Sequence record: OP557969.1
Origin: Escherichia phage ph0011
Length of the DNA: 64,000 nt
Strand: one strand, 5' to 3'
This document shows positions 1-49,575 of this stretch, piece after piece. Under the pieces are notes generated by a model that was not told the origin of the DNA, searched no databases, and was given only the letters and a program-made list of their open reading frames with translations. The first letter of the stretch is position 1; each line of letters opens with the position of its first letter. Position numbers and translations under genes: made by a program.

Positions 1-3278
<3,278 letters not shown>

Positions 3279-6959: not shown

Positions 6960-9539
6960 ATGAAAATTTGTAAGTTAACTTTATTGGATGAGGTGAATTG
7001 TAAATTTGAGGGACTAGATCCCTCAATTCGACAAAAGATGATTCGTGCAACTGAATATGTGCTACCATATGCAAAGTTTACACCAGCAGGTCGTATTGGG
7101 CGTTGGGATGGTAAAGTACAATTCATGAACTTAGGTGGAAGCACATACTTTCATATGCTTGATAAACTTTTACCTATTCTTGACGAAGCTAATATTGATA
7201 TTGAATTAGAAGATCATAGACTAAATTACGGTTTCGAATTTGAACCAATTGATGAAAATATTTTTAGCGATGTTGTTTTTGGTCCTGGACACCACATGGA
7301 AGGTAAAAGTATTATCCTACGTGAACATCAGGTAAATGCAGTAAATTCGTGTTTAGCTAACCCACATGGGTTGGTTCTGGCAGCAACTGGTGCAGGAAAA
7401 GCCCAGCCACTTGATGAACCAGTTCTTACCATTAATGGATGGAAACGAATGGGTGACATAAAAGTTGGCGATATAGTAAAATGTCCTGATGGAACAAATG
7501 CTCCCGTCCTTGGTGTATATCCACAGGGAATTAAACCAACAGTACGAATGACATTCTCGGATGGACGAAGTGTCGAATGTTGTGATGAACATTTATGGAA
7601 TATATATAGTATTGCTGGTGAAAAAAACCCTGAAAAACGATGGAGAAACCTTTCTGTTAAAGAAATCATTGAATTACAAAATAAACAAAAACGTCCAGTA
7701 TATATTAAAACAATCACTGGTGATATTTTTGAAGAAAAAGAATTACCAATACATCCATATATTTTAGGTGTATTACTCGGTGATGGATGTTTAAGAAATG
7801 GTAATATAATGTTATCAAGTTCAGATGAATTTGTTATTGATAAGGTATCTTCATTATTACCTGATGGTTATATTATCAAGAAAAAACAATCATCAAAATA
7901 TGATTATAGTATTGTCATGGATGATACAAAAAAGAAAGAATATTTATGTAAAAATAATAAAGAAAGATATAACGAACTTAGGGTTATTTTGGAAGAACTT
8001 GGAATTTATAATAAGTATTCATATGAAAAGTTTATCCCTGAAATTTACAAAATGTCATCAATTGAACAACGTCTGCAACTCATTCAAGGATTAATTGACA
8101 CGGATGGTTATGTTGATAAAAGATTAAAAAACGGAAAGTCCCGAAATGTGGTGGAATTTTGTAGTACATCAGAAAAATTGGTTGATGATTTGAAAGATAT
8201 AATGAATAGTTTAGGTGGTTACGGTATTAAAAAATCTAAACAAACTTATTATACCTATGCAGGGGTAAAACAAAAAGGTCGCCCAAGTTTTAAAATGAGA
8301 ATTGATTATAATAATCTTAATGCCTTGGCTAGTTTACCTCGCAAAAAAGACTTTTTATATTCAGAAAGAAATCGTGTTGAAAATAAACTAAAAATTGAAA
8401 AAATTGAATATATTGAAGATAAAGAATGTCAATGTATCTATATTGATCATCCAGAACATCTATATATTACCAGAGATTATATCGTAACACACAATACAAT
8501 TATTTGTGCTGCTTTGGCGAAATCGGTACAAAAATATGGACGTTCTGTTATCATTGTCCCCAGCACTGACCTAGTACAACAAACATATGATGATTACATT
8601 ATGTGTGGATTAGATGCTGGTATGTTCTATGGTGCACAGAAAGATTTTGGTCATCAACATACTATTACTACTTGGCAATCATTTAACTCTCTATGGAAGA
8701 AAACCAAAAAAGGTGAAATTGAATTAACAGAACAAGACGTAAATGATTTTATTGATGGGGTAGTTTGTGTTATAGTTGATGAGTGTCAAGGTGCTGGTGG
8801 TGATGCATTAGTTCAAGTACTATCTAAAGTTATGAACAACGTACCATTGCGTTGGGGTCTTACTGGTACAATTCCGAAAGATCCGGTTGTTGCAGCGAAA
8901 ATCAAATGTAATGTTGGTGATGTTATATATAAAATCACTGCAAAGGAATTACAAGATAAAAAGATACTAAGTACATGTAATGTGAATTGCATTAAACTAA
9001 AAAGTAGTATGAAGTTTGCATCATATGCTGAAGAGTTGAAATACTTAGTAACTGACAGAGATAGAATGGCATATGTAGCGTCATTGATATCTGCGTTATC
9101 TGAATCAGGAAACACTTTAGTTTTAGTAGATAGACTTGAAGCAGGTGAGTTGCTATGTGAATTTTTAGGCATTCCCAAATCAGAATTCGTTCGTGGAGAA
9201 ACTAAAAAGAAAGATCGAGAATCATCTTATGGTGAAATTCGTTGGGCTGATAATAAAATACTTATTGCGACATACGGCGTTGCCAGTACTGGTATCAGTA
9301 TTTCAAGGCTATACAATGTAGTATTGATTGAACCTGGAAAAAGTTTCGTAAGAACTATACAATCAATCGGACGTGGATTACGCCGTGCTGAAGACAAAGA
9401 CCATGTTGAAATATATGACATTAGTGGTTCTAATAAGTATAGTGCAAAGCATTTACGTGAGCGTCTCGCTTACTATAAGGAAGCACAATATCCTCATACA
9501 GTAATAGACGTTAAAGATTGGGAAAACACAGCGGGATAA
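6960..9539 (+). CDS. uvsW: UvsW-like SF2 helicase interrupted by an in-frame intein
   Basis: Extein motifs: Walker A ATGAGK|T split by the intein, DECQ box, GLTGT, QSIGRGLRR (motif VI). Confidence 0.7.
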   Translation: MKICKLTLLDEVNCKFEGLDPSIRQKMIRATEYVLPYAKFTPAGRIGRWDGKVQFMNLGGSTYFHMLDKLLPILDEANIDIELEDHRLNYGFEFEPIDENIFSDVVFGPGHHMEGKSIILREHQVNAVNSCLANPHGLVLAATGAGKAQPLDEPVLTINGWKRMGDIKVGDIVKCPDGTNAPVLGVYPQGIKPTVRMTFSDGRSVECCDEHLWNIYSIAGEKNPEKRWRNLSVKEIIELQNKQKRPVYIKTITGDIFEEKELPIHPYILGVLLGDGCLRNGNIMLSSSDEFVIDKVSSLLPDGYIIKKKQSSKYDYSIVMDDTKKKEYLCKNNKERYNELRVILEELGIYNKYSYEKFIPEIYKMSSIEQRLQLIQGLIDTDGYVDKRLKNGKSRNVVEFCSTSEKLVDDLKDIMNSLGGYGIKKSKQTYYTYAGVKQKGRPSFKMRIDYNNLNALASLPRKKDFLYSERNRVENKLKIEKIEYIEDKECQCIYIDHPEHLYITRDYIVTHNTIICAALAKSVQKYGRSVIIVPSTDLVQQTYDDYIMCGLDAGMFYGAQKDFGHQHTITTWQSFNSLWKKTKKGEIELTEQDVNDFIDGVVCVIVDECQGAGGDALVQVLSKVMNNVPLRWGLTGTIPKDPVVAAKIKCNVGDVIYKITAKELQDKKILSTCNVNCIKLKSSMKFASYAEELKYLVTDRDRMAYVASLISALSESGNTLVLVDRLEAGELLCEFLGIPKSEFVRGETKKKDRESSYGEIRWADNKILIATYGVASTGISISRLYNVVLIEPGKSFVRTIQSIGRGLRRAEDKDHVEIYDISGSNKYSAKHLRERLAYYKEAQYPHTVIDVKDWENTAG
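7401..8495 (+). mobile_element. Intein (365 aa) with LAGLIDADG homing-endonuclease domain inside the helicase P-loop
   Basis: Begins right after GAGK; LAGLIDADG-like LLGDGCL and LIDTDGYVD; ends IVTHN (N at 8493-8495) followed by extein T; length is a multiple of 3. Confidence 0.75.
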
Positions 9540-42296: not shown

Positions 42297-42328
42297 GGAA
42301 GACCCAATGGGTCTTCCTTGTCCTTTAT
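42297..42328 (+). terminator. Rho-independent terminator
   Basis: ggaagaccc-aat-gggtcttcc perfect 9-bp stem, T-rich tail. Confidence 0.6.
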
Positions 42329-42346
42329 ATAAATAATCTATAGATA

Positions 42347-44767
42347 ATGGTAGCTTGGCTATGGAGAATTACAATGACAACTTTTACCCCACGTTGGGAT
42401 ATAAAAGCCGATGCTCGATATATACAAGAAGGACAAGACATTCTTTTGCGTTTGAGTATCAACAAAAATAGCACAACAGATGCTAGTTATGTATTAAATG
42501 AAGATGAATACTTAGAGATGATTCTTACAATACAATGCTTGGATAGTTCAGGTGCAGTATTTGAGCCAGAATCACATTATACTTTTTTTGTGGGTAATGA
42601 TGAAAACAGTTTTATACCCATTTCTGAAGGAACTACTGGAAATAAATTGGTAAATGGGAAACATAAATGTAAAATTAGTAAAACACAATTTAACTTATCA
42701 GGCAGTACTAATAGTGAAGATATATATTTTATAAAAATTCATTGTAAAAATAACGGAACATTCAACAATACCGAAATTATCAATTTTTATTTACAGGCAG
42801 TAAATGTGATGTATTTTGGTAATATTGCACCTAGTGGTGTGTTGGGAACAACTGACGCATCAGTAACATATGATAGCCAGGAAGTTTGGGTTACACCTGG
42901 TGTAGAGATTGGTGATGATAAAAAACCATACTGCATCGGGGATGTTGATTATGGTTCTAACAGTACATTGTTTGTACAAGGATTTGGAAGAAGACGACCT
43001 TTTATATTTGGGACTGACACTACTCTTGATTTCACCCCACGAGTATTCTACCCAGCTTATAGATTGCTTGATATGGATATATCGGAAGTTCCACAGAATC
43101 ACATCACAAAGGATTATGCCGTTTTTAAACCAGCACAAACTGTATGGCCTATTTCGGGTATAAACAAAGAAGTTAAAGTTAACATTCAAAACAAAAACGG
43201 AAGCACAATTGATACTGGAATGATTTTCAACCCAAATGGTCAATTACTTCAAACATTTTTATACGAATCTGAAGCATGTGACGCATATTTTAAGGTTGAG
43301 ATTGTAGACATTTTAAGTACTTATGTAGATGATAGTGAGAGATTTGCAATAAATCAACGTTACAAAGCATATCAAATGTGGGTATGTCCAGAAGACATAG
43401 ACACTATATATTCAATCTCTGATAAACCATTACCAAATCATTTGTACCAATTAAAAGATAATATAGTTTATCCATATGTAATTAGTGGTGAGTATGACGA
43501 TGGCACACTTAAGCCTGTATATGATAGTAGTGATTGGATAGATTTAGGTTATTACGATCCAACTCTTGGTGAAAATATCATTGGAATGCAAAAAATATTC
43601 AGGGTATTAGTTAATGCAGAAGAAGGGAATAACATAAACTTCATAACTGAGAGTGACTTAGGAACCATTCATGTTGGTGAATACTTTGGGAATAGCGTCT
43701 ATCCTAAGATAGAAACTGATAGTACAAGTCAGGTTTCTTATATATTAGATGGTGGTGATGATATTAGAAAATATGGAATGGACTTAACACCAGATGGTTA
43801 TCTAGTAGGAACTGCATTTGCTAAAAGTGTGGATTTTAGTGCTAATGATGATATTAAACTTTCATTTTACGTTAAAGCATTCAGTTCTGAAGGTGGTGAG
43901 GCAAGAAAATTATTTAATCTTAAAATCATAAGAGGTTTTGGGCAAAATTATTTAAGTGCACATGTTCTACCATCTGTTTCTTTTGAAAGAGATTGGTTTA
44001 AATGTATTAGTACTTCATCATTTACTAACCAATTATTTTTCCGTCAATCCGATGATAGATATGGTCTTCAAAAAGTACCAAAAATGCTATTGAAAGAAAA
44101 TTTTCTAAGTCAAACGTACCCATACACCAATCTTTCTGATATTAAGAAAGTATTACGAAAGAGTATTGTTGATACAAACGGAACCACTATTCCGAATGGT
44201 AAATTTAAAATGGTAATGGGTAATTATAAATTGTTATCAGCACTTGACAATCAAGGAAATTTACAATATGATTTATTGTATCGTGAAGTTTTACCTGAAG
44301 GTTCGTTGGTGTCAGTGTCTAAAAATCCACGCCAGTACACACAAATTGACAATGGCCTACTGGGTGAACTGTTTGGTTTACGACAAAACATATTCAAAGC
44401 AATTGGTGAAGATACAACCAACTTGGTCAAAGATCCTACAGATTTACAAAACCGTGGTATGTATGTTGATGCTATACCTAGTGTTAGTGATGAGATGCTT
44501 GATACTGTTCCTAGGTTTATGAATCATCCCTATATTGAAAATAACCTACAGAAAAAATTCATGCCTATAATTCCAGTTGCATATTGTCTGCCAGGCAAAG
44601 GTGAAGCATTTTTCAACACTTTACTACAGAATAATGAACATGGTACAATGGTCGGTCTAGAATTTGAAATTACATCGGTGGAGTTTGGGTATTTTTCACA
44701 TGAATCAGATAATTATGTACCTGATACATTTGTAATTACATTACCAAACAATAACATAGGAGTTTAA
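42347..44767 (+). CDS. Hypothetical large protein (about 800 aa)
   Basis: Long ORF; start may be the ATG at 42374 (MTTFTP); no motif recognised. Confidence 0.55.
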   Translation: MVAWLWRITMTTFTPRWDIKADARYIQEGQDILLRLSINKNSTTDASYVLNEDEYLEMILTIQCLDSSGAVFEPESHYTFFVGNDENSFIPISEGTTGNKLVNGKHKCKISKTQFNLSGSTNSEDIYFIKIHCKNNGTFNNTEIINFYLQAVNVMYFGNIAPSGVLGTTDASVTYDSQEVWVTPGVEIGDDKKPYCIGDVDYGSNSTLFVQGFGRRRPFIFGTDTTLDFTPRVFYPAYRLLDMDISEVPQNHITKDYAVFKPAQTVWPISGINKEVKVNIQNKNGSTIDTGMIFNPNGQLLQTFLYESEACDAYFKVEIVDILSTYVDDSERFAINQRYKAYQMWVCPEDIDTIYSISDKPLPNHLYQLKDNIVYPYVISGEYDDGTLKPVYDSSDWIDLGYYDPTLGENIIGMQKIFRVLVNAEEGNNINFITESDLGTIHVGEYFGNSVYPKIETDSTSQVSYILDGGDDIRKYGMDLTPDGYLVGTAFAKSVDFSANDDIKLSFYVKAFSSEGGEARKLFNLKIIRGFGQNYLSAHVLPSVSFERDWFKCISTSSFTNQLFFRQSDDRYGLQKVPKMLLKENFLSQTYPYTNLSDIKKVLRKSIVDTNGTTIPNGKFKMVMGNYKLLSALDNQGNLQYDLLYREVLPEGSLVSVSKNPRQYTQIDNGLLGELFGLRQNIFKAIGEDTTNLVKDPTDLQNRGMYVDAIPSVSDEMLDTVPRFMNHPYIENNLQKKFMPIIPVAYCLPGKGEAFFNTLLQNNEHGTMVGLEFEITSVEFGYFSHESDNYVPDTFVITLPNNNIGV

Positions 44768-44768
44768 T

Positions 44769-45080
44769 ATGTTTAATCCATTTTTTGACCCGTCTGGGAT
44801 GACGGATAAAGAATTACAGTTAAAAATCAACGAGCAATCATTACGTTTGACATCTGCACGTGCGGCTGGTATGAGTGATATGATTATTGGTAATATGCAA
44901 ATGGTGCTAAATCAATGTTATGCTGAACTAGAACTTCGCCAGGGACATAAAGAGAAAAATGTTTATGATGAAGAAGACCCGTGTATCTTCGACATGGACT
45001 CGTATCTAACTGACAACGAAGAGGCTCAGAAGAAGAAAAATGAAAGTACAAGGAAACAGATTTATAAGTCCCAATGGTGA
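44769..45080 (+). CDS. Hypothetical protein (103 aa)
   Basis: ORF. Confidence 0.5.
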   Translation: MFNPFFDPSGMTDKELQLKINEQSLRLTSARAAGMSDMIIGNMQMVLNQCYAELELRQGHKEKNVYDEEDPCIFDMDSYLTDNEEAQKKKNESTRKQIYKSQW

Positions 45081-45558
45081 TGTGAAATGTAATCTTAATG
45101 CAGTTGTTTATGCAATCAACTGTGGTGCAGATATCCAGTACTTACAATTACAGGAAATCGATGAACCTGAAAGGTTAAAATTCAATGATAACTGTAAAAA
45201 ATTTGGTTTAGAGCAACGTATGCTGGATTATACCATTGAACATGATAAAAATCATGAACTTTGGCGTTATGATCCAGTATATGATAATATAAATCTACGT
45301 GACTTTTTTTTACAAAAGTGTACATCTGATGAAGCACGAACACGTGTTGAGTATGAGCTTGAATTATATGAATATTATAATATGACAAAACTATTAAGAT
45401 GTATGATCTGGCTCGTTGATTACATGGAAGAACATGAAATCTTTTGGGGTCTGGGGCGTGGAAGCTCTGTTGCATCATATTGCTTATACTTGATTGGACT
45501 ACATATGGTAGATTCATTGAAGTATGACCTTGATGTGAACGAATTTTTGAAATGGTAG
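45040..45558 (+). CDS. Hypothetical protein (172 aa)
   Basis: ORF; start uncertain. Confidence 0.45.
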   Translation: MKVQGNRFISPNGDVKCNLNAVVYAINCGADIQYLQLQEIDEPERLKFNDNCKKFGLEQRMLDYTIEHDKNHELWRYDPVYDNINLRDFFLQKCTSDEARTRVEYELELYEYYNMTKLLRCMIWLVDYMEEHEIFWGLGRGSSVASYCLYLIGLHMVDSLKYDLDVNEFLKW

Positions 45559-45566
45559 ATAAACAT

Positions 45567-45600
45567 GTGATATAATGTGTATTGTAGTTATTATATCACA
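45567..45600 (+). promoter_or_regulatory. Extended -10 (TGaTATAAT) embedded in a perfect 11-bp inverted repeat
   Basis: tgtgatataat ... attatatcaca separated by 12 nt, just upstream of the ORF at 45623. Confidence 0.45.
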
Positions 45601-45622
45601 CATAAAATAAAAGGATTTTGAT

Positions 45623-45967
45623 ATGTCTAAACATACAACTTATCGTGGTACAACAATTGACATGGATATGCTCAAGTACCAAAATCAACACCAGGTAGCA
45701 TTGGGTAATGCAAATCTAAATGCACGTGGTGATAAAATTGGCTCAGGTGGAACAATTATCAAAACTCGTGAAGAGTTACTTCAAGAAAAAGAACGTGAAA
45801 TGCAAATTCCTGATTTTATTCCTGAACATCAACTTCATAGTACTGAACATAGTACTGAAGAAGTATGGGATGATGAAAGCTTTGAAGTTATGCCCGAAGT
45901 AAAAGAAGCTGAGGTTTCTGAAGAAAAGAAAGCCCCACGTCGAGCAAGAACTAAAGAACAGGAGTGA
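45623..45967 (+). CDS. Hypothetical protein (114 aa)
   Basis: ORF with AAGGA RBS. Confidence 0.5.
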   Translation: MSKHTTYRGTTIDMDMLKYQNQHQVALGNANLNARGDKIGSGGTIIKTREELLQEKEREMQIPDFIPEHQLHSTEHSTEEVWDDESFEVMPEVKEAEVSEEKKAPRRARTKEQE

Positions 45968-46302
45968 TGTGTCAAATGACTAATAAAGTAATGACTGCAT
46001 GTAAAGGTAAAGTTCTAGTAACTGATCTGGAACATGGTGAACGTAAAACAGCAGGTGGGATCGTTTTAACGAACGATGATGGCAAAATCAGGGGCATTCG
46101 TTCTCGCTGGGCAAAAGTCTATTCGGTCGGTGAAGACATTACTGATATTAAAGAAGGACAATGGATTTTAATCGATCACGGTCGATGGTCAAGAACTATT
46201 GAAGTTGATGGCATTGAATTGAACTTGGTTGATTACCCTGCTGCTGTTAGTTTAGTATCAGATGAAGATCCAAGAACAAAAATGCTAACCTTTGGACGTT
46301 AA
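45964..46302 (+). CDS. 31: GroES-like co-chaperonin (T4 gp31-like)
   Basis: KGKVLVTDLEHGERKTAGGIVLT parallels GroES ([20 protein letters not shown]); length about 110 aa. Confidence 0.55.
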   Translation: MMCQMTNKVMTACKGKVLVTDLEHGERKTAGGIVLTNDDGKIRGIRSRWAKVYSVGEDITDIKEGQWILIDHGRWSRTIEVDGIELNLVDYPAAVSLVSDEDPRTKMLTFGR

Positions 46303-46359
46303 CAAAAAATCAATTGAAGCTCGGATAGAAATCTGGGCTTTTTATTTGGACAAAAAATA

Positions 46360-46629
46360 ATGATAACTGATGATGGTAAATTTAGTTTCAAAGATGTAAC
46401 ATTAGTGTCAAAGAATGGAAGATTCATGTTTGAGGATAGAAAAAATACCAAATATGTATATGAAGTTTCACATGATATGTTTAAAGTTTTATTAGTTGCT
46501 TCAGCACAAGCTGAAAGTACTGGAATTAAAAATAAGGCAAATTCTTTTAATTTTTTATTAAATCAACTTGAGATGACAGAAGAACTTTTCACGGCTTTAT
46601 TATATGATTCAGCCGATTGGATTCTATAA
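46360..46629 (+). CDS. Hypothetical protein (89 aa)
   Basis: ORF. Confidence 0.45.
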   Translation: MITDDGKFSFKDVTLVSKNGRFMFEDRKNTKYVYEVSHDMFKVLLVASAQAESTGIKNKANSFNFLLNQLEMTEELFTALLYDSADWIL

Positions 46630-46652
46630 CACGTACACAGAAGGAAATACAC

Positions 46653-47606
46653 ATGACCACACTATGGACTGAAAAATATCGCCCACAAACAATGGAAGAT
46701 TATGTATCAAAAAATGATGCTCTACGTCAGAAAATGGAAGAATGGATTAAAACTGGCGACATTCCACATATTGGTTTTTTTGGCCCAGCAGGAACTGGTA
46801 AAACATCTGCAATTAAAGTACTTATTAATGGTTTGGTTCAGAACGGACACCTCGACCCAAGTGACGTAACCACACTTAATATGTCAGATGAAGGTATTGA
46901 TGCTGTGCGTGATAAAATTGATGCCGCAGCAAAACTATCATGCTTTGGACGATATCGTATTTTTGTTCTTGAAGAAATGGAACAAATGAACCATAAAGCA
47001 CAAGGTAGCTTGAAGCGTGTCATGGAAGACTATCATGAAAATGCTCGCTTTATTTTAACAAGTAATGAACCACATAAAATTCAAAAACCTATTATCTCTC
47101 GCGTTCAAGTCATTACAATTGAAAAACATGACATGGAACAGTTCATGACAAGAATTTATAATATCCTTCTCGCTGAAGGTGTTGATCTGAGTAGTGATGA
47201 TAGTGTTGAACAAGTTCAAAAGTACATCAATGCTTCATATCCAGATTTTCGTAAAACGCTAAACGTATTGCAAAGTTCAGTTGTTGATGGTAAACTAGTC
47301 AAACTTGAGGATAGTATTGAAAATTCTGCCGGATATCGCACTGCAATCATTGATGCGTTGAAGGCAGGAAATATCCGTCAAATGCGAGAGCAAATTGTTC
47401 AATCTATCCCTGATGATGAAATGGATGCATTTTTTTCGTACTTGTACCGAAATGCGGAAATGTTCAGTACTGACGAAATCACACTGATGAAGATTAAAGT
47501 TAAAATTCGTGATGCTGTTGTTAAGCAAGCAACAGTATCCGACCGTGAAATGAATCTTAGTGCATTGTTGTGTGAGATTGATCTAATTTGTTCGGGGAAC
47601 ATGTAA
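46653..47606 (+). CDS. 44: Clamp loader large subunit (AAA+; T4 gp44-like)
   Basis: LWTEKYRP, Walker A GPAGTGKTS, Walker B-like FVLEEMEQ; AAGGA RBS before the ATG at 46653. Confidence 0.7.
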   Translation: MTTLWTEKYRPQTMEDYVSKNDALRQKMEEWIKTGDIPHIGFFGPAGTGKTSAIKVLINGLVQNGHLDPSDVTTLNMSDEGIDAVRDKIDAAAKLSCFGRYRIFVLEEMEQMNHKAQGSLKRVMEDYHENARFILTSNEPHKIQKPIISRVQVITIEKHDMEQFMTRIYNILLAEGVDLSSDDSVEQVQKYINASYPDFRKTLNVLQSSVVDGKLVKLEDSIENSAGYRTAIIDALKAGNIRQMREQIVQSIPDDEMDAFFSYLYRNAEMFSTDEITLMKIKVKIRDAVVKQATVSDREMNLSALLCEIDLICSGNM

Positions 47607-48232
47607 TGAAGCCACGTTGTATTGTTTTTGATTGTGACGAAGTTCTATTAGACCACATCGGTATGCTTTCAGAGTATGTTAAACAAACTTATAACATAAC
47701 CCCATCAACACCATATCCAACAGAATATGACCTATCAGATTGGTTGGGTGTTCCTCAAACTGAAGTTAAAAAAATTCTTGAACGTTTCAATCAACAATCG
47801 TATTTGTTTGGATTGTTAAAACCTGTTGAACCAAATACTGTTGATATTGTTCAAGAATTACGTGACCGTTTTTATAAAGAAAAGTTTGTGGTTCTGACAA
47901 AATGTGGTAAGAAAGGATATGGTGAAGTTTTGCGTAATGTGAATCTCATGCGAGAATTTGGTGAAAATTGTTTTGATGAGATCATCATCATTGAAATGGA
48001 TGAAACAAAGAAAAAGGCATTGGAGGATTTACAAGAGAAGTACGATGTGAAATTGATGATTGATGATTATATCAACAACATTGAAACTGCATTGGAGCTT
48101 GGTATTCCTTCAGTTATGATGGGATGCTCACATAATACTGCATACAGGAACAGTCGTGATTTTGAATATATCGAGAACTGGACCGAGCTTAGACTGAAAA
48201 TTTATTCAGTTCTGGGTAAATATTATAAATAA
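47606..48232 (+). CDS. HAD-superfamily hydrolase, possibly 5'(3')-deoxyribonucleotidase-like
   Basis: N-terminal FDCDEVLLD (DxDx[VT] HAD motif I); TAATG overlap with upstream stop. Confidence 0.4.
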   Translation: MKPRCIVFDCDEVLLDHIGMLSEYVKQTYNITPSTPYPTEYDLSDWLGVPQTEVKKILERFNQQSYLFGLLKPVEPNTVDIVQELRDRFYKEKFVVLTKCGKKGYGEVLRNVNLMREFGENCFDEIIIIEMDETKKKALEDLQEKYDVKLMIDDYINNIETALELGIPSVMMGCSHNTAYRNSRDFEYIENWTELRLKIYSVLGKYYK

Positions 48233-48245
48233 TACTTTTTAAATT

Positions 48246-48274
48246 AAGGGGTTTGTTTCAAACCCCTTTTGTTG
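48246..48274 (+). terminator. Rho-independent terminator
   Basis: ggggtttg-ttt-caaacccc followed by ttttgttg. Confidence 0.65.
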
Positions 48275-48331
48275 TATTTTAAAAGTAGTAAATAGTATTA
48301 TATGTGCTAGTTTTTGAGGATAATATAAAAT

Positions 48332-48898
48332 ATGGAAGATTTAGATTATACAGATAATGCTATTCAGCAGTTGTATGATAATAGTGGTATGTTAGATATA
48401 CTTCTTGCTGTTGAGAAATACTTCGATGATAATGATTTATACGCTTATAAAGGTATCATCGAGGGTGAATTAGTTGAGGGACCAATTGTAAGTAAATATT
48501 GGTGTACAGTTACATTTAAATATTATCGTGAAAACTTTCCCGATCCTACAGCGTTCTCAATATTGGAGAAACATGGCACTAAAGTATACGTCAAAGCGGA
48601 TTATGAAATAACACCAATTGAAGAACCAAATCGACAAGCAGATATGAAAAGTATTGCAACACAGACTGGTTCTGTGCGTATACCAAAAAATGAACGAATT
48701 CCGGTTCTATTGGTTAGAGTTCAAATACCACGAAATTTAATTAATCCAGAAAGTTTTGATGAATATAAACTTATGGCATCTGAATTTAATAGTAACCCAA
48801 TGAATTCTCCTGAAAATATTGAAGAACCCGTTACTGGGGATGATGTTGACTTAGATGTTGATGTAACTGACAATACACAAGAAGGTGGAATGCAATGA
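48332..48898 (+). CDS. Hypothetical protein (188 aa)
   Basis: ORF. Confidence 0.5.
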   Translation: MEDLDYTDNAIQQLYDNSGMLDILLAVEKYFDDNDLYAYKGIIEGELVEGPIVSKYWCTVTFKYYRENFPDPTAFSILEKHGTKVYVKADYEITPIEEPNRQADMKSIATQTGSVRIPKNERIPVLLVRVQIPRNLINPESFDEYKLMASEFNSNPMNSPENIEEPVTGDDVDLDVDVTDNTQEGGMQ

Positions 48899-49575
48899 AA
48901 ACTAAATTAAATGAGCAAGGATTACGTCCCCAGGTTCTTAAAGATTTGATTCATCCTATTATTAGTGTTGATGAATATACTCCTAAAATTGAAGATAGTA
49001 ATATTGTAATTATGTTTCAGGTTCTGAATAATTTCGATGCTGCATATGATTTATCTTCTTTCATCGAAAAATCACCGATTGATGCGATTGACACTGAGGC
49101 GGCAGAAACTCCTAATTTGGATGGTCGCTATCAAGTTTATGTGGAAATGGAACGAAATGCGGAGTTTCCTGAAAAACTTTTACGTTTAATTAAAACTATC
49201 GAAAATATTTGTCCTGATCCTGGTTGGAAAATCCAACTATATGGTGTCAATGATCCAATTGATGTTGATTTCGATGAAATACAACAAAGAATTGACTTGG
49301 GTATCCCAAGTTCAATTAGTGAGTTTCTTGACTATGCTGGTGTTTCGGTGATTAAAGAAGGTAATATGTTGACATTGAAAACTGCATATGGTAAATTGCA
49401 TTATAGTTCAGGGAGTGGTTTTGTTTCTGAATCATATGTTAAGAAACTATTAAAAAATGATACACAGTTGGATACATCACGTCTTAGTTCTATCTTGGGT
49501 GAAAGCTATACAGTACTACGCAGTGGTGATCAATACGTGATTGGAAGAAATGGGAAATATTTGGTGTTACGATGA
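48895..49575 (+). CDS. Hypothetical protein (226 aa)
   Basis: ORF with ATGA overlap. Confidence 0.5.
   Translation: MKTKLNEQGLRPQVLKDLIHPIISVDEYTPKIEDSNIVIMFQVLNNFDAAYDLSSFIEKSPIDAIDTEAAETPNLDGRYQVYVEMERNAEFPEKLLRLIKTIENICPDPGWKIQLYGVNDPIDVDFDEIQQRIDLGIPSSISEFLDYAGVSVIKEGNMLTLKTAYGKLHYSSGSGFVSESYVKKLLKNDTQLDTSRLSSILGESYTVLRSGDQYVIGRNGKYLVLR

Follow-up and report, generated by a model that had tools for sequence, protein, structure and literature searches.

The 64,000-nucleotide stretch of DNA from Escherichia phage ph0011 (OP557969.1; hereafter the window) carries on its plus strand two small adjoining genes. The upstream one is an open reading frame (ORF) of 114 codons, and the downstream one encodes a protein of the Cpn10 fold, for which a first-pass annotation made from the letters alone had proposed a phage co-chaperonin of the GroES/gp31 type. 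A σ70-type promoter-like site precedes the pair and an intrinsic terminator follows it (Table 1). Positions 44500–48500 align over their full length, at ~90% DNA identity, with PBECO4, 121Q, phAPEC6, Sharanji and about 30 other genomes, a degree of sequence agreement that identifies the window as belonging to an Asteriusvirus-type jumbo coliphage. Comparison of the downstream protein with its homologs, with E. coli GroES and with T4 gp31 indicates an architecture of the gp31/CocO type, in which the GroEL-binding motif is kept, the mobile loop is longer and the roof is deleted. A suitable annotation for the gene is a roofless GroES-family co-chaperonin of the gp31 type, starting at 45976.

Table 1. 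Features of the two-gene locus, in window coordinates (pLDDT, predicted local distance difference test score; pI, isoelectric point; dN/dS, ratio of non-synonymous to synonymous substitution rates)
Feature	Position	Strand	Description
Cpn10-fold co-chaperonin coding sequence (predicted)	45976..46302	+	108 amino acids plus stop; 12.06 kDa; pI 6.1; assigned from Cpn10, PHROG, fold and dN/dS
Mobile-loop region (predicted)	46024..46113	+	Residues 17–46; placed by hhalign against GroES and family counts; pLDDT 76–81
Site of the missing roof β-hairpin	46129..46158	+	G52...G61; 8 intervening residues versus 17 in GroES
Shine-Dalgarno-like AGGAG	45960..45964	+	11 nucleotides upstream of ATG 45976; CAGGAGT kept in Sharanji
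Partner ORF	45623..45967	+	114 amino acids; 13.2 kDa; pI 5.2; phrog_14844, E = 4e-63; function unassigned
σ70-type promoter-like site	45547..45576	+	TTGAAA, 18 nucleotides, TATAAT, with upstream TG; 11/12 positions; at the end of the DnaE-fragment ORF
Intrinsic terminator (predicted)	46316..46350	+	11-bp stem, 4-nucleotide loop, then TTTTTATTT; begins 13 nucleotides past the stop codon

The open reading frame list counts 112 codons on the plus strand from a GTG at 45964 to position 46302, and the first-pass annotation had taken this span as the gene. The gene itself is real, as judged from selection, Pfam and PHROG 931 matches and its many homologs, but the start coordinate is probably 12 nucleotides off: ATG 45976 is almost certainly used rather than GTG 45964, judging from homolog comparison. 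Alignments of homologs to the 112-residue translation begin only at residue 5, and the Asteriusvirus orthologs are 99% identical from that residue on. Sharanji reads GTA ATA where the window has GTG 45964 and ATG 45967, and keeps the equivalent of ATG 45976; the orthologs Sharanji gp283 and phAPEC6 gp154c are both annotated with 108 amino acids. Between the window and Sharanji, the gene differs by 27 synonymous changes and a single non-synonymous one (dS ~0.5, dN/dS = 0.008), pointing to a functional gene under strong purifying selection. A tblastn search with the protein located the gene in 88 phage records, 33 of them from Escherichia jumbo phages, and public data hold 113 homolog clusters, several of which have a precomputed PF00166 match. 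Two small minus-strand ORFs that overlap the gene, 45972–46097 and 46299–46451, found no support.

Membership in the Cpn10 family rests on profiles and fold together. A profile search against Pfam Cpn10 (PF00166), which the first-pass annotation had proposed as a check, gave 24.2 bits (E = 3.4e-5), narrowly above the gathering score of 21.1, with the match spanning residues 12–70 of the 112-residue translation, that is, residues 8–66 of the 108-residue protein. Among phage families, the protein matched PHROG 931 ("head morphogenesis") at E = 2e-20 and the GroES family PHROG 3188 at E = 2.7e-5; T4 gp31 itself falls in PHROG 931 (3.7e-50) and E. coli GroES in PHROG 3188. The reference sequences for gp31 and GroES throughout are identical to PDB chains 1G31_A and 1AON_O. 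The GroES-like N-terminal strand and length noted in the first-pass annotation also hold, since KGKVLVTDLE...KTAGGIVLT aligns with GroES ...KSAGGIVLT in a protein of 108 amino acids and 12.06 kDa.

An AlphaFold2 monomer model built from a 76-sequence homolog alignment reached a pLDDT of 88.2 and a predicted template modeling (TM) score of 0.81, with lower confidence over residues 21–40. In a Foldseek search of the PDB, the top 20 matches to this model were all Cpn10, GroES or gp31 structures (TM 0.5–0.58), from sources including H. thermophilus, M. tuberculosis, E. coli (1aon_O), human mitochondria and the chloroplast, with T4 gp31 (1g31_A) at rank 19. Canonical GroES chains had E-values of 2e-4 to 2e-3 versus 3e-2 for gp31, and structural alignments to GroES showed ~20% identity. 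Matches in BFVD were viral GroES models, down to E = 1.9e-8. The prediction thus yields a Cpn10 fold, the absence of which the first-pass annotation had named as the outcome that would overturn its proposal.

The features that set this protein apart from GroES concern the loop and the roof. The motif G27-G28-I29-V30-L31, encoded at 46054–46068, lies within AGGIVLT, which hhalign places on the identical residues 22–28 of E. coli GroES, and a glycine followed by a hydrophobic tripeptide, G-[IL]-[IV]-[IL], is kept in 74 of the 76 family members. Around the motif, the loop of the phage protein gains one residue at one point and four at another in the alignment. Its stretch between the flanking strands counts 31 residues, and a count between conserved anchors gives a loop region of 30–31 residues in all 75 scorable family members. 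At the opposite end of the lid, hhalign leaves a 9-residue gap facing GroES residues 48–56, exactly at the roof hairpin; the roof region is 8 residues long in 73/75 members, and in the AlphaFold2 model the hairpin is absent between strands 44–51 and 63–66. By the same measures, the T4-type gp31 family has 30–31 loop residues and 10 roof residues (the latter in all 33 sequences), E. coli GroES has 26 and 17, and a second phage-encoded paralog, Sharanji gp344, has 24 and 17.

The gp31-type label proposed in the first-pass annotation therefore stands at the level of architecture, with a loop of 30–31 residues, a roof of 8 and a PHROG, 931, in common with T4 gp31. An hhalign comparison with the T4-type gp31 family profile had a probability of 90% (E = 1.4e-6) and showed loop and roof to be of almost the same length in both. 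T4 gp31 (PDB 1G31, 2CGT) resembles the window protein in its Cpn10 β-barrel, its mass of ~12 kDa, its long loop with glycine and hydrophobic tripeptide and the absence of a roof. Both also come from phages without a detectable GroEL of their own, and both genes lie amid nucleotide- and DNA-metabolism genes, with gp30.2 or a homolog of it downstream on the same strand. The two differ in that the window protein has a GroES-like C-terminal third followed by a 13–14-residue tail, carries the family-specific residues W45, R70 and W71, is encoded by a jumbo phage with a second, canonical GroES paralog, and has as its presumed client a capsid protein of 42 rather than 56 kDa. E. coli GroES (PF00166; 1AON chain O) shares with it the Pfam match, the best structural matches, the AGGIVLT motif and an alignable N-terminal strand; relative to GroES, the phage protein has five additional loop residues, nine fewer roof residues and a C-terminal extension, and its gene does not lie beside groEL.

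Published work provides a frame for these differences. Compared with GroES, gp31 is larger (12 versus 10 kDa), has longer loops, is without roof loops and yields a cage ~8% larger (PMC6318259), and roof deletion is common to gp31, CocO and several marine virome clusters, many of the roofless GroES-type viral genes sitting in genomes that encode a co-chaperonin only (PMC5649160). RB49 CocO and the marine roofless clusters are like the window protein in being phage-encoded and in missing the roof hairpin, the likeness to CocO being drawn from its published description; any relationship to CocO is remote, as tblastn with the window protein reached no T4-like phage at E ≤ 1e-3. The annotated orthologs differ from it in essentially nothing, and the window gene is another allele of a known family: the Asteriusvirus proteins are 99% identical and those of Rak2, GAP32, CBB and Yen9-04 64–77% identical, all with conserved gene order. 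The labels in use include "chaperonin" (121Q gp58), "chaperonin 10 Kd subunit" (Sharanji gp283), "head morphogenesis" (PBECO4) and "GroES", and CBB_268 is a further ortholog. The identity of the gene is thus largely already known, through orthologs annotated as chaperonin, GroES or head morphogenesis and through the idea published for CBB; our additions are modest, namely a gp31-type architecture made explicit, the co-occurrence with a roofed paralog and the conserved bicistron. They extend the gp31 design of long loop and no roof to the jumbo-phage clade of Rak2, Asteriusvirus and PA5oct.

A lid of this kind needs a chaperonin ring to cap. A tblastn search with E. coli GroEL recovered phage GroELs in 252 records, at identities down to 21–25%; Escherichia was not among the genera with at least seven matches, despite the 33 Escherichia records that carry the Cpn10 gene. 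By these searches, the Asteriusvirus genus appears to be without a detectable GroEL, and host GroEL would then be the partner, as in T4. One distant relative carries both genes: the marine Vibrio phage 2.275.O (MG592671.1, 349 kb) has a Cpn10 gene at 42309–42650 (55% identity) and its own GroEL at 206909–208483 (69% identity to E. coli GroEL).

On this basis, we propose that the 12-kDa Cpn10-fold protein would assemble into a heptameric lid, with the G-G-I-V-L motif on its long mobile loop docking onto the apical domains of host GroEL, and that during infection this phage lid would replace or compete with host GroES. A loop longer by ~5 residues, together with the loss of the roof, would make the chamber between GroEL and lid taller and open on top, as described for gp31 and CocO, and such an enlarged chamber could offer a better fit for phage proteins, head proteins being the most plausible substrates. 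The Cpn10 gene and the 114-residue ORF would form one transcription unit, running from the σ70-type promoter, presumably used by host RNA polymerase, to the intrinsic terminator. For the reading as a whole, namely a roofless, long-looped heptamer that caps host GroEL in place of or in competition with GroES, assists phage protein folding and is co-transcribed with the 114-residue ORF, we estimate a probability of roughly 0.72. If experimentally confirmed, it would provide a natural system in which the contribution of a roofless lid could be studied beside a normal GroES and with a capsid protein that is not oversized.

Several results weigh against this proposal or against parts of it. In sequence searches of the PDB, the single sequence gave only a marginal match, to chloroplast Cpn11 (E = 0.057), and the family profile found GroES chains weakly (E = 0.025–0.7), with gp31 not among its matches; the sequence alone being weak in these searches, the assignment relies on Pfam, PHROG and fold. 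The GroES equivalog models of NCBIfam scored 15 bits at best, with a cut-off of 109. Kinship with gp31 is harder to argue than likeness: the gp31 alignment is limited to the N-terminal ~62 columns and leaves the C-terminal third unaligned, and a hidden Markov model (HMM) of close T4-type gp31 homologs (54–85% identical to T4 gp31) scored the protein at 8.6 bits. Given that score, the gp31-like shape may be convergent, and we rejected PHROG 931 as proof of descent in common with T4 gp31, as it must be a broad family. Like-for-like hhalign comparisons give GroES a slight lead (E = 1.8e-4 versus 8.4e-4 for gp31), and the roof may have been lost independently of the gp31 lineage.

The presumed substrate is a further difficulty, since the major capsid protein of phAPEC6, Gp225, is only 42 kDa (PMC7247149) and T4 gp23 is ~56 kDa (PMC6318259). 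We accordingly downgraded, as a rationale for the design, an enlarged cage for an oversized capsid protein, the Asteriusvirus capsid protein being 42 kDa. The literature found on the clade offers annotation-level remarks only (PMC5259590), with no experiment among them. W45, R70 and W71 are invariant in this phage family and lack a counterpart in GroES or gp31, which the proposal does not account for. Tyr71 of GroES lines the interior of the dome, and hhalign places R70 opposite this residue; one speculation is that W45, R70 and W71 alter the lining of the cavity.

The remaining point against the proposal is the presence of a second, canonical GroES in such phages. A tblastn search with GroES detected this second gene in the Asteriusviruses, Rak2, GAP32, CBB and others. 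In Sharanji, it is gp344, annotated "groS", a protein of 99 amino acids whose gene (OR545507.1, 172768–173067) adjoins polB and lies ~47.7 kb upstream of the Cpn10 gene in a separate transcription unit. The protein keeps the roof, has a GGII(L) loop motif and is 39–47% identical to E. coli GroES. By extrapolation from Sharanji, its equivalent in ph0011 would lie ~1.7 kb before window position 1; a search of every window ORF of 50 amino acids or more with the family HMM found no second Cpn10 copy. A GroES tblastn match at 7368–7493 (E = 0.065) proved spurious, as it falls inside an intein-bearing helicase ORF. This helicase, at 6960–9539 on the plus strand, is a ResIII/DEAD-type protein of 859 amino acids interrupted by an insert, probably an intein, that contains a LAGLIDADG_3 domain at residues ~370–419.

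Asteriusvirus-type phages hence encode a roofed and a roofless lid, yet no detectable GroEL, and the two paralogs could operate as one system, either as mixed heptamers or as lids split by time or substrate, so that gp31 alone would be an insufficient guide to their function. All Asteriusvirus and related records hold the second Cpn10 gene, for instance Sharanji gp344 with its roof of 17 and loop of 24 residues, and the authors of the CBB genome paper pointed out a pair of GroES-like ORFs, for which they proposed mimicry of GroES (PMC5259590). Chloroplast Cpn10 and Cpn20 form mixed heptamers of this kind. Hetero-oligomeric co-chaperonins have a precedent in plastids (PMC4242682). The two phage genes, however, are ~47.7 kb apart and belong to different transcription units, and for T4 gp31 as for GroES the working form is a homo-heptamer (PMC6318259). 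We regard such a two-paralog system as unlikely, while ranking it first among the alternatives to our main proposal.

The upstream ORF, hereafter the partner, is the only truly uncharacterized element of the locus, and it accompanies the Cpn10 gene closely. Its stop codon, TGA at 45965–45967, lies 8 nucleotides before the Cpn10 start, and the Shine-Dalgarno sequence of the Cpn10 gene falls within its last codons, an arrangement by which the two ORFs may be translationally coupled. In GAP32, PA5oct and Vibrio phage 2.275.O, a homolog of the partner is the gene directly before Cpn10, and a 247-kb metagenome contig has this arrangement too, with a 4-nucleotide overlap between the ORFs and a Cpn10 protein of only 31% identity. 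Phage records with the partner ORF number 83, against 88 with the Cpn10 gene, and the counts per genus are almost equal. By gene order, the pair is kept together across Asteriusvirus, Mimasvirus, Wroclawvirus, the Vibrio jumbo phage and metagenomic relatives, an association that may be functional or may simply be inherited synteny. Within the partner, conservation is concentrated in the N-terminal ~60 residues (G9, D13, A26-x-G-N, N33-A-x-G-D37, G-x-G-G), with the motif G..(I/V)D(M/L)D.L...N...VA.GN.N.NA(R/K)GD..G.GG; the tail is acidic, of low confidence and basic at its C-terminus. Searches of Pfam and NCBIfam returned no matches. The AlphaFold2 model (pLDDT 72.9, predicted TM score 0.37) is of moderate confidence over the first ~60 residues and low beyond, and Foldseek found no fold match for it in the PDB.

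Two side observations concern the pair itself. A protein 100% identical to window 45623–45964 (P0176) appears in public data under the label of an Escherichia coli hypothetical protein, ACMG5I_03910. The contigs that carry its cluster reach 350,346 bp, so that a phage genome essentially identical to the window probably sits within a bacterial assembly. On metagenome contig ERZ28575875 scaffold_10 (L007), from a distant jumbo-phage-like relative, a TnpB/Cas12f1-like gene (PF07282; 4918–6105, minus strand) is inserted just downstream of the pair, at the place that the clamp loader occupies in the Asteriusvirus.

The constancy of the pair invites a bolder view, in which the roofless Cpn10 and the partner, co-transcribed and possibly coupled in translation, would constitute a dedicated module. 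The partner, with its acidic and probably disordered tail, would serve as adaptor or as obligate client and steer host GroEL to particular phage substrates; grouped with it is the possibility that the two Cpn10 paralogs make mixed or alternating lids. We hold either version to be improbable. If true, the module or mixed-lid version would reprogram the chaperonin in a way that has not been described for T4 gp31.

Two further explanations dispense with a phage substrate or with GroEL altogether, and we consider both to be quite remote. According to the first, the protein would hijack or block host GroEL through its loop motif, mainly to shut down or redirect proteostasis in the course of host take-over or to evade a chaperone-dependent defense, with no dedicated phage substrate. 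Such a role would accord with an AGGIVLT motif identical to that of host GroES, with what appears to be early expression, under a σ70-type promoter and amid non-structural genes, with a capsid protein small enough for the normal cage, and with a second, canonical GroES to which the folding work could fall. It sits poorly with the precedents of gp31 and CocO, which are productive co-chaperonins able to replace GroES (PMC6318259; PMC5649160), and with conservation of the whole β-barrel beyond the loop, which fits a functional lid.

According to the second, the Cpn10 fold would have been recruited, together with the 114-residue protein, to a job unrelated to GroEL, for example as a small factor for assembly or scaffolding or as an accessory to DNA replication. 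The order DnaE fragment, 114-residue ORF, Cpn10 is indeed kept down to 31% Cpn10 identity, W45, R70 and W71 are foreign to GroES and gp31, and GroES-like β-barrels occur in unrelated enzymes, medium-chain dehydrogenases appearing among the Foldseek matches at E ~0.2. But nearly every family member has kept G-[IL]-[IV]-[IL], and has it on a flexible, lower-pLDDT loop, which would be difficult to account for if GroEL were not involved. Inherited synteny could suffice for the gene order, and the partner protein gives no functional clue. That the frame is a chance opening or a decaying pseudogene, for which the sole weak point is a Pfam score just past the cut-off, is already refuted by the dN/dS value, the breadth of homolog clusters, the confident fold prediction and the conservation of ribosome-binding site, promoter and terminator.

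The signals bounding the putative transcription unit are conserved to differing extents. The promoter-like site was the best in a scan of the region, in which the total number of sites was not above chance; it is kept base for base in Sharanji, and GAP32 has a TTGAAA...TATAAT pair at the equivalent position. In PA5oct, a relative, dependence on host RNA polymerase and promoters of the TTGAC/TATAATA type have been described (PMC7318152); the main text of this RNA-seq paper makes no mention of the chaperonin. The terminator RNA at 46316–46341 folds at −14.3 kcal/mol (z = −5.05), a value reached by 0/200 shuffled sequences, and it is kept in Sharanji; in GAP32, the equivalent position holds a hairpin of different sequence followed by a T-tract. 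An Rfam search of 44500–47500 on both strands at E ≤ 1 detected no RNA elements.

The first-pass annotation had placed the gene among replication genes, a description that holds for part of the neighborhood: a DnaE fragment, a clamp loader (46617–47606) and a hydrolase lie nearby, and orthologs of virion proteins also flank the locus. The latter, detected by mass spectrometry in phAPEC6, comprise an 806-residue ORF upstream (gp158c) and the ORFs at 48332–49575 (gp150c and gp149c). The Cpn10 ortholog gp154c and the gp155c upstream of it are not among the 62 phAPEC6 virion proteins, and the absence of gp154c from that list fits a non-structural chaperone. In a T4-type genome, gene 31 is flanked by dCMP deaminase, rIII, the 30.x genes and DNA ligase, so that a place amid DNA-metabolism genes is not unusual for a co-chaperonin of this type.

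Among the neighbors, the NT5C/HAD-type hydrolase at 47588–48232 (plus strand) is a homolog of T4 gp30.2 (pairwise E = 7e-9), and in T4-type phages gene 31 is followed on its own strand, ~3 kb further on, by gp30.2; the hydrolase's position near the Cpn10 gene may be a relic of a shared gene order. The DnaE fragment at 45040–45558 (plus strand) is a stand-alone protein of 172 amino acids, of which residues 92–171 match positions 16–95 of the 260-position Pfam DNA_pol3_alpha profile. Its ORF overlaps a 103-residue ORF (44769–45080) by 41 nucleotides, and GAP32, Vibrio phage 2.275.O and contig L007 likewise have the fragment directly before the partner–Cpn10 pair. At the beginning of the window, far from the co-chaperonin locus, a terminase large-subunit ORF (79–1854, plus strand) combines Terminase_6N at residues 135–343 with LAGLIDADG_3 at residues 2–56; the LAGLIDADG_3 portion resembles the C-terminal end of an intein, in a gene whose beginning would lie outside the window.

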